DNA of 889 bases from Escherichia coli (lineage in GTDB: Bacteria; Pseudomonadota; Gammaproteobacteria; Enterobacterales; Enterobacteriaceae). The position numbers were made by a program, and so were the translations under genes. The stretch lies in assembly GCF_003334385.1 (NCBI RefSeq), contig NZ_QOWN01000143.1, one strand, 5' to 3'. The notes below the pieces were generated by a model, which saw only the letters and a program-made list of their open reading frames with translations, was not told the origin of the DNA and made no database searches. Within the stretch, counting starts at the first letter, position 1. Every line of letters starts with the position of its first letter. Of this stretch, positions 1 to 889 are shown piece after piece.

Positions 1-602
1 GACGACCACAGCGTTCTGTTCTGCAGTTGGTCCGTGGTGCTGTCCGCCGTCTCCCTGACCATCCGGATGTTAAAGGGGCGGGGAGGCAGATTATCCAGAA
101 TCACCGAGGCCAGGAACTGTGAGGTGGTCTTGCCGTTAATGGTGACATCCTTTTCTGTCACCCAGTTACCGTTACGCTGTAACTGAATCAGCAGACGGAC
201 AGAGGACGGATTACGGTCACCCTTTGACGTGGTCTCCACCAGTGACTGCACCCCGAAGGTAACCCGCAGACGGTCAATGTTCGCTGACGTGATGGTGCGC
301 GTCACCGGCTTTGCCTTCGTCACCTCCACGCCCAGTGCGGTTTCCGCCCCGGAGGACTCAAAGCCTTCCGGCGGTGTCTGCTCCTGCTCCCCGGCACGCC
401 AGACGGCGGTCACACCGTGTATCACGGGATTACCGTCCGTGTCCGTCAGCGGGGTTTTGTTCACCAGAATACTCTGCAGTCCCTTCACCGGGCCTTCTAT
501 CGGTCCCTCACCAATCGCATCAATCACACTCATCATCTGCGTGGATTTGAGATTATCCTTCGCCTCGCGCGGTGTGTGCGCCCTGCCGCCGCCTTTGCCC
601 AT
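1..602 (-). CDS. J: Host specificity protein J / tail tip central fibre protein, N-terminal 200 codons; start codon at 602..600, ORF continues beyond the left edge of the window
   Basis: Reverse complement of 1-602 is an uninterrupted reading frame: ATG at 602..600, then 200 sense codons with no stop (MGKGGGRAHTPREAKDNLKSTQMMSVIDAIGEGPIEGPVKGLQSILVNKTPLTDTDGNPVIHGVTAVWRAGEQEQTPPEGFESSGAETALGVEVTKAKPVTRTITSANIDRLRVTFGVQSLVETTSKGDRNPSSVRLLIQLQRNGNWVTEKDVTINGKTTSQFLASVILDNLPPRPFNIRMVRETADSTTDQLQNRTLWSS...). From memory this aligns colinearly with the N-terminus of phage lambda J (MGKGSSKGHTPREAKDNLKSTQLLSVIDAISEGPIEGPVDGL...TPPEGFESSG...TRTITSANIDRLRFTFGVQALVETTSKGDRNP...NLPPRPFNIRM...DSTTDQLQN.TLWSS) at high but not complete identity. 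A strong Shine-Dalgarno sits 7 nt upstream. No database search was run. Confidence 0.9.
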   Translation of the reverse strand, partial: MGKGGGRAHTPREAKDNLKSTQMMSVIDAIGEGPIEGPVKGLQSILVNKTPLTDTDGNPVIHGVTAVWRAGEQEQTPPEGFESSGAETALGVEVTKAKPVTRTITSANIDRLRVTFGVQSLVETTSKGDRNPSSVRLLIQLQRNGNWVTEKDVTINGKTTSQFLASVILDNLPPRPFNIRMVRETADSTTDQLQNRTLWS

Positions 603-606
603 TACA

Positions 607-615
607 TCACCTCTT
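607..615 (-). promoter_or_regulatory. Ribosome binding site (Shine-Dalgarno) of J
   Basis: Minus-strand sequence upstream of the ATG reads ggtAAGAGGTGAtgtaATG; the GAGG core (613..610) lies 7 nt from the start codon at 602. Confidence 0.65.
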
Positions 616-635
616 ACCGTGATAATTGTTCACTC

Positions 636-668
636 ACAAAAACAACAGGCACCCCGGAGGATGCCTGT
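636..668 (-). terminator. Rho-independent terminator-like hairpin on the tail-operon strand, about 35 nt upstream of the J start
   Basis: Minus-strand RNA: ACAGGCA-U-CC-[UCCG]-GG-G-UGCCUGU followed by UGUUUUUGUG. The 7 bp GC-rich stem (668..662 paired with 651..645) extends to about 10 bp via one U.G wobble and two C-G pairs around a 4-nt loop. On the plus strand the same hairpin is followed by ATCATGACTG (no U tract), so it is orientation-specific. Pairing was checked by hand only, not with a folding program. Confidence 0.55.
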
Positions 669-675
669 ATCATGA

Positions 676-711
676 CTGAATAAAAATTCTGAATATCTTC
701 ACATTTTCACA
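676..711. repeat. Short tandem direct repeats: CTGAATA x2 (676-682, 689-695) and TTCACA x2 (698-703, 706-711)
   Basis: Read directly from the sequence: gaCTGAATAaaaattCTGAATAtcTTCACAttTTCACAaa. The repeat periods are 13 and 8 bp. Function unknown; they overlap the candidate promoter and a CRP-like site. Confidence 0.5.
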
Positions 712-733
712 AACTGACTGTGGCGCTGATAAT
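706..733 (+). promoter_or_regulatory. Candidate sigma70 promoter firing antisense to the tail operon
   Basis: TTCACA (706-711; 5/6 to TTGACA), a 16 bp spacer, then GATAAT (728-733; 5/6 to TATAAT). Predicted transcription start near 740. It sits in the AT-rich spacer and a plus-strand terminator lies about 60-100 nt downstream. Hexamer matching only, no experimental support. Confidence 0.3.
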
Positions 734-739
734 TTCGCT

Positions 740-837
740 GCGTTAATTTTTTTTGTCGTGACATAAGAATAATTCCTTACACTTAATCTTCGTAACTCTC
801 CCGCAGTTCCTGTCCGCGATCACTGCGGGATTTTTTT
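740..837 (+). ncRNA. Candidate small antisense RNA of about 95-100 nt (hypothetical), from the predicted start near 740 to the plus-strand terminator
   Basis: No plus-strand ORF exists here: there is no ATG between 673 and 845, and GTG/TTG starts hit stops within 1-8 codons. The interval is bounded by a promoter-like element upstream and a strong intrinsic terminator downstream. I do not recognise it as a known sRNA family. Confidence 0.2.
799..837 (+). terminator. Rho-independent terminator on the plus strand (antisense to the tail genes)
   Basis: Perfect inverted repeat TCCCGCAGT (799-807) / ACTGCGGGA (822-830) gives a 9 bp stem with 6 G-C pairs around a 14-nt loop, followed immediately by TTTTTTT (831-837) and then ATTCTTTTT. 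On the minus strand the hairpin is preceded by an A-run and followed by GAGTTACGAAG, so it would not terminate tail-operon transcription. The loop is longer than typical. Confidence 0.6.
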
Positions 838-844
838 ATTCTTT

Positions 845-889
845 TTACCCCTGCCGCCCGATAACCACGACCTTTCCGCCCCCGCCTTC
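845..889 (-). CDS. C-terminal end (14 codons plus stop) of a probable tail assembly protein I homologue; gene enters from beyond the right edge
   Basis: Reverse complement of 845-889 translates as EGGGGKVVVIGRQG followed by TAA (stop at 847..845). From memory lambda I ends ...DEGDGGQVVVIGR, so the Gly-run plus VVVIGR motif matches, and I lies directly upstream of J in lambda. The fragment is very short, and the other two minus frames are also open across this edge, so the call rests on motif and synteny. Confidence 0.5.
   Translation of the reverse strand, partial: EGGGGKVVVIGRQG

Follow-up and report, generated by a model that had tools for sequence, protein, structure and literature searches.

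[quoted passage not shown] When lambda binds its receptor, LamB, the HDII-insertion of gpJ swings outward in a rigid-body rotation and the plug formed by gpI is loosened, and the receptor-binding domain of lambda J is a C-terminal Ig-like domain (PMC11101478).

Small RNAs have been described from enteropathogenic and enterohaemorrhagic strains of Escherichia coli that bear on the DNA next to this gene. PasB, an 83-nt Hfq-dependent sRNA of EPEC E2348/69, was found by RIL-seq and northern blotting (Pearl Mizrahi et al. 2021, PMC8550237). EcOnc22, EcOnc23, and EcOnc24 were recorded as Hfq-CRAC peaks in O157:H7 Sakai, and EcOnc22 gave a northern band of about 85 nt and was destabilised in the absence of Hfq (Tree et al. 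2014, PMC4104026, Table S2). Experiments have shown an expressed, Hfq-bound RNA of about 83–85 nt only for the E2348/69 and Sakai variants (PMC8550237, PMC4104026). A 2026 survey of Pas sRNAs reported 1158 PasB matches, with differences of a few nucleotides among them. The sources used here for comparison with PasB were PMC8550237 and the preprint of Zhu et al. 2026.

Gene content and family assignment

The whole stretch of DNA that was analysed, referred to as the window, is 889 bp long. In the reverse-complement translation of positions 1–602, 200 codons starting with MGKGGGRAHTPREAKDNLKSTQMM are open, with no stop codon and no frameshift in the window. By homology, this segment (1..602, minus strand; codons 1–200 plus 2 nt) was assigned to the 5′ part of the tail tip or host specificity gene J, the ATG of which is the complement of 600–602 and which continues past the left edge of the window. 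The J Shine–Dalgarno region, AGAGGTGA (607..614, minus strand), was read from the sequence 4–6 nt 5′ of the ATG; its GAGGT core is the complement of 609–613, and the region is unchanged in the four relatives compared. The other end of the window (845..889, minus strand) holds the 3′ end of the tail assembly gene I, comprising its last 14 codons (...EGGGGKVVVIGRQG) and the stop codon TAA, the complement of 845–847. J is placed directly downstream of gene I in the window. The nearest records show the order G-T-H-M-L-K-I-J, and the DNA matches of the window in these records carry an annotated J together with tail assembly protein I. The preliminary description of the J 5′ part was right about the content of the sequence, but it left unmentioned the minus-strand orientation of the gene and its continuation past the left edge.

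The NCBIfam model lambda_TipJ was matched over model positions 1–200 of 1163 with an E value of 1.7e-124, its full-length cut-off of 1950 bits being out of reach for a 200-residue fragment. The PHROG families 'tail protein and host specificity' and 'central tail fiber J' also matched the J fragment (E about 1e-110), as did the lambda 'Tip attachment protein J' in the PDB (8iyk, 9e7m; E about 1e-100). Within the fragment, J residues 86–200 (3..347, minus strand) correspond to the FNIII-A domain of gpJ (Pfam PF24801, FNIII-A_GpJ, E 2.2e-37). J residues 1–85 (348..602, minus strand) correspond, by homology to lambda gpJ, to the beginning of the 'HDII-insertion' region of the hub as that domain is described in PMC10721106 and PMC11101478, with a boundary that is not exact.

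More distant relatives matched the fragment as well, among them an F2-pyocin tail fibre (E 4e-11), a J-like gp24 (E 3e-14), and many phages of Klebsiella, Pseudomonas, and Ralstonia at below 60% identity. These matches would fit a J-like tip protein from outside the lambdoid phages, either of a remoter siphovirus (T1-like or other) or of an F-type tailocin. Such an origin is extremely improbable, however, since the distant tip proteins are 26–39% identical to the fragment compared with 96–98.5% for those of Stx-converting lambdoid phages, and since the flanking gene I and the I–J sRNA locus match E. coli lambdoid prophages. The preliminary description had named best matches outside the J family as the outcome that would speak against it; the best matches were all J-family tail tip proteins. 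With the homology, domain content, synteny, and start site observed here, positions 1–602 are almost certainly the minus-strand beginning of J, following gene I, in an Escherichia lambdoid siphovirus or prophage, and the 200 residues make up the hub portion at the N-terminus of the tail tip protein.

Relation of the J fragment to lambda gpJ

BLASTP against lambda gpJ (J02459, 15505–18903) showed 156 identical and 175 positive residues out of 200 with no gaps (E 3e-109), and the DNA identity to lambda over 1–602 was 466/602 (77.4%). Third codon positions account for 84 of the 136 DNA differences, and the codons that differ from lambda comprise 64 synonymous and 44 non-synonymous ones. This third-position and synonymous bias is what purifying selection on a coding sequence produces. 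The six conserved lambda J blocks listed in the preliminary description are all present, starting at residues 9, 76, 101, 126, 171, and 187 in both proteins. Of the substitutions that it gave as examples, MM for LL and VW for VF were confirmed, but 'GGGRA for SSKGH' was off by one residue in its register; the true change relative to lambda gpJ is GGRA for SSKG at residues 5–8, between G4 and H9 of both proteins.

The window has the same gene and the same conserved blocks as phage lambda. That it is lambda itself or a laboratory lambda derivative is nevertheless refuted by the DNA identity of 77.4% and by residue differences at 44 of 200 positions. In addition, the I–J gap measures 242 bp compared with 60 bp, the sRNA cassette in it is absent from lambda, and the E. 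coli copies of the lambda class are 95–100% identical to lambda. The statement that the window derives from a distinct lambdoid element and not from lambda itself thus holds, the protein identity being 78% to lambda versus 98.5% to a Stx2a-converting phage.

Full-length J has about 1130–1180 codons, of which the window covers 200. A further explanation is that the fragment comes from a decayed cryptic prophage with a truncated or defective J, the 200 codons being a remnant. Truncated copies of this class do exist, since the Sakai prophages Sp14 and Sp15 have here an annotated J homologue of just 1176 bp, and with up to 11 copies of the segment per E. coli genome, many are likely to reside in defective prophages. 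Against decay stand the 200 codons free of stops and frameshifts, the bias of the substitutions towards synonymous ones, and a start codon and Shine–Dalgarno region that are intact and identical to those of the viable isolated phage PhiR5_1. A remnant is therefore unlikely, and the gene J that begins in the window would be intact beyond it.

Allele class and abundance

The closest phage protein to the J fragment is that of the Stx2a-converting phage Stx2_EH1846 (98.5% identical), and the J of an E. coli NCTC9112 prophage is identical to it at 197 of 200 residues. A tBLASTn search of 50,697 phage records gave 143 records at 95–99% identity, seven at 80–95%, and 107 at 60–80%. The first group consists mostly of Stx-converting phages, and the last includes lambda and its relatives at 77–78%. 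When 5426 complete E. coli genomes were searched, window-type DNA was found in 1889 of them, with a median of two copies and up to 11, and the lambda-type J 5′ end was found in 4345, in copies that are 95–100% identical to lambda. A guess that the window-type J outnumbers the lambda type was wrong by these counts.

The window J is the second common allele class and is ordinary rather than rare, being a J 5′ end of the Stx-phage allele class that is already annotated in thousands of genomes. The preliminary description had called the domain clearly diverged from lambda; the divergence is real, but it is not unusual, as E. coli has two common allele classes and this is one of them. It was also observed that the two classes of E. 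coli J 5′ end are discrete, intermediates being almost absent.

Mosaic structure of the J segment

Over the whole 889 bp, the window was 95.5% identical to PhiR5_1, about 92% identical to many Stx1a- and Stx2c-converting phages, and up to 95.7% identical to E. coli prophages; over the J part, the best match among the complete E. coli genomes was 96.0%. No identical record was found in the complete E. coli genomes, in IMG/VR by an exact 45-mer scan, or in metagenome contigs by an exact 60-mer scan. The IMG/VR scan returned one contig, 90.6% identical, and the metagenome scan returned five relatives, about 95% identical over J.

The mismatches to the metagenome relatives are clustered. At window positions 51–250 there are none per 50 nt in three of four relatives and at most two in the fourth, and at 301–350 there are 7–12 per 50 nt in all four. 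Furthermore, different relatives match the window exactly over different stretches. The clustered mismatches are the usual recombinational mosaic. The allele class, typified by Stx-converting phages and PhiR5_1 and standing about 22% from lambda in both DNA and protein, is reshuffled by recombination within the class.

Structural role of the fragment and host range

By homology to the lambda tip, the part of J in the window would lie on the outer face of the trimeric cone, below the gpM ring, and it would bind the plug protein gpI by β-sheet augmentation through its HDII-insertion and FNIII-A domains. J residues 1–200 would accordingly be named an assembly and gating module rather than a receptor binder, a role that fits the strong conservation of the fragment as well as the presence of a matching gene I linked to it. 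The window ends at J codon 200, and the C-terminal receptor-binding part of J lies beyond it; the earlier placement of the receptor determinant at the C-terminus, outside the window, agrees with PMC11101478.

The earlier view that this segment does not reveal host range is borne out by the J proteins of PhiR5_1 and NCTC9112, which are near-identical N-terminally and 22–26% identical at the C-terminus. In their alignment, each 100-column block of columns 1–800 is 95–100% identical, and the last three blocks are 66%, 26%, and 22% identical, with 22–26% identity over the last 180 columns or so. A sharp recombination joint is seen in this pair ahead of the receptor-binding end. Some lambdoid phages use OmpC or FhuA. 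The two classes of J N-terminus recombine with unrelated C-terminal receptor-binding parts, which makes phage typing by the J 5′ end misleading. What the J fragment does provide is a place for the window, at the I–J junction of a common lambdoid tail module; host range is not inferable from it.

A predicted sRNA gene in the I–J gap

The gap between I and J contains a predicted sRNA gene (741..837, plus strand), antisense to I and J, which was assigned to the PasB/EcOnc22 family as a window-type variant by comparison of the locus, promoter, and terminator and by folding. A sigma-70-like promoter (706..733, plus strand) with −35 TTCACA, a 16-nt spacer, and −10 GATAAT matches the consensus at 10 of 12 positions. 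The putative terminator hairpin (799–830, plus strand) is followed by a U7 tail (831–837) that ends 7 nt before the I stop codon. The start of the RNA is predicted near 741 from the −10 element, or near 755 by analogy with the 83-nt PasB of E2348/69, and the RNA body upstream of the terminator comprises about 58 nt and is largely unstructured.

Comparison with nine relatives showed that the promoter block (677–740) is identical at 58–62 of 64 positions. The first position of the −10 element (window 728) is G in the window copy, and all nine aligned relatives have TATAAT; the change to GATAAT might lower expression of this copy of the sRNA. In an alignment of ten I–J loci the promoter is near-invariant and the terminator conserved, and the RNA body occurs in several variants, with the short motifs UCCUU and AUCUU common to the bodies of all ten sequences. 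The window, PhiR5_1, and NCTC9112 have one RNA variant in common (97/97). The outer stem arms of the terminator, CCGCAG and CUGCGG, are unchanged in every variant compared, and the stem is therefore uninformative for covariation. The I–J gap is itself mosaic, with an apparent joint just upstream of the conserved sRNA promoter.

PasB of E2348/69 maps to NC_011601 1466343–1466261 on the minus strand, between I (which ends at 1466255) and J (which starts at 1466496), and when the northern probe for PasB is reverse-complemented, it agrees with window positions 811–833 at 20 of 23 positions. The Sakai coordinates in Table S2 of PMC4104026 were carried over to NC_002695.2 with a shift of about +137 to +146 nt, calibrated on AgvB1 alone and required for any placement of EcOnc sRNAs on that record, after which EcOnc22, EcOnc23, and EcOnc24 fall on the RNA body of Sakai I–J loci. 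Identification of the I–J RNA with AgvB or AsxR was rejected, as those map downstream of PR′ and not in the tail operon, and the Rfam AgvB model has no match here.

The window-type RNA, present in ST131 and CFT073 among others, was found at 1749 places in 1254 of the 5426 complete E. coli genomes, more than the E2348/69-type RNA, which was found at 999 places in 956 of them. Neither type is annotated at any place in the complete E. coli genomes scanned, and no Rfam family reached its gathering threshold on the window, E2348/69, or Sakai I–J loci. A match to Rfam MicX, a Vibrio sRNA, at 636–837 (plus strand) reached 21 bits (E 0.035), far below its gathering score of 75, was driven by two hairpins, and was set aside as chance, as were two snoRNA-like Rfam matches in the window. 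The published PasB survey probably missed the window-type variant: its search was by megablast with 28-nt words, the variant and PasB have no exact run in common longer than 25 nt, and its count of 1158 fits the E2348/69 type alone.

The long I–J gap of this J class is thus not empty, holding a predicted sRNA gene of an experimentally supported family that is unmarked by genome annotation or Rfam. The evidence is evenly balanced on whether the gap encodes an unnamed and unannotated sister of PasB/EcOnc22, one that keeps the promoter and terminator, differs in its body, and would for that reason probably act on other targets. If so, tail operons would carry interchangeable sRNA 'morons' that combine a conserved scaffold with a variable seed. 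The unannotated sRNA variant is the only mildly new item in the window; it is of a known kind and lies outside 1–602.

The J leader hairpin and other features of the gap

A scan for terminator-like structures showed a hairpin in the J sense (635..668, minus strand), with 10 pairs (645–668) and then UGUUUUUGUG; it precedes the J ATG by about 35 nt. Its fold has a free energy of −25.2 kcal/mol (z = −5.25), and none of 200 shuffles was as stable. E2348/69 keeps the hairpin, with a different loop and stem top. Judged from its form and position, it may be an intrinsic terminator that is read through by Q-modified polymerase, or else a stabilising or processing stem.

A 19-codon frame, MIQASSGVPVVFVSEQLSR*, on the complement of 614–673 overlaps the leader hairpin, and its stop codon overlaps the J Shine–Dalgarno region. 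The frame is open in E2348/69 too and has no Shine–Dalgarno of its own; it is probably non-coding, a by-product of the hairpin.

The body of the E2348/69-type PasB contains the 11-mer ACAAAAACAAC, which is also found as the plus strand of the J leader (window 637–647), and PasB is thus complementary to the J mRNA leader at this point. The window-type sRNA body does not contain this 11-mer. Pairing of the sRNA with the J leader found no support, as the RNAduplex energies were no better than those of dinucleotide shuffles (60 of 300 as good for the window, 57 of 300 for E2348/69). The 11-mer common to PasB and the J leader is probably a low-complexity chance match.

In the alignment, two metagenome contigs (L009 and L010) carry about 100 bp of inserted sequence in the interval from the J start to the sRNA promoter. 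The insertion carries a different hairpin and T-run (CCCCGGTATCAGCAGATACCGGGGTTTTC) on the sRNA strand, which replaces the leader hairpin of the window.

Comparison with known systems

The J fragment and lambda gpJ (PDB 8IYK, 8XCG, 9E7M) are colinear and ungapped over residues 1–200, with 78% identity, and they have in common the FNIII-A domain, the place after gene I, and a leader hairpin before the start codon. They differ at 44 of 200 residues, and the DNA identity is 77%. The C-terminus of lambda I ends in ...EGDGGQVVVIGR, whereas that of the window I ends in ...EGGGGKVVVIGRQG. The hairpin and T-run before J in lambda are analogous to those of the window but have another sequence, and this is the sole hairpin in the 60-bp I–J gap of lambda, which has no sRNA cassette. 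The window gap (603–844), in contrast, is 242 bp long, four times longer, and carries the predicted sRNA gene.

The closest likeness is to the Stx1a-, Stx2a-, and Stx2c-converting phages, PhiR5_1, and the E. coli prophages of NCTC9112 and 55989, which are 96–98.5% identical in protein and 92–96% identical in DNA over the window, including the I–J gap and the end of I. None of these records is identical to the window, however, which is a mosaic of stretches that it shares with different members.

Among the sRNAs, EcOnc22, EcOnc23, and EcOnc24 lie in the I–J gaps of the Sakai prophages Sp15, Sp14, and Sp11, respectively, and are likewise on the strand antisense to the tail genes, but the RNA body in Sp15, that of EcOnc22, is a third sequence variant. 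PasB lies in the same I–J gap, again antisense to the tail genes, with its 3′ end a few nucleotides from the I stop codon; its promoter region is identical to that of the window at 60 of 64 positions, and the 3′ arm of the terminator and the U7 tail are identical. The two RNAs differ, however, in their bodies, which agree at 38 of 60 aligned columns (70 of 102 over the whole RNA) with a longest exact shared run of 25 nt, and in the −10 element, which is TATAAT in E2348/69 and GATAAT in the window. By this comparison, the predicted sRNA of the window is a member of the PasB/EcOnc22 group at the level of the family and a distinct variant, not PasB itself.
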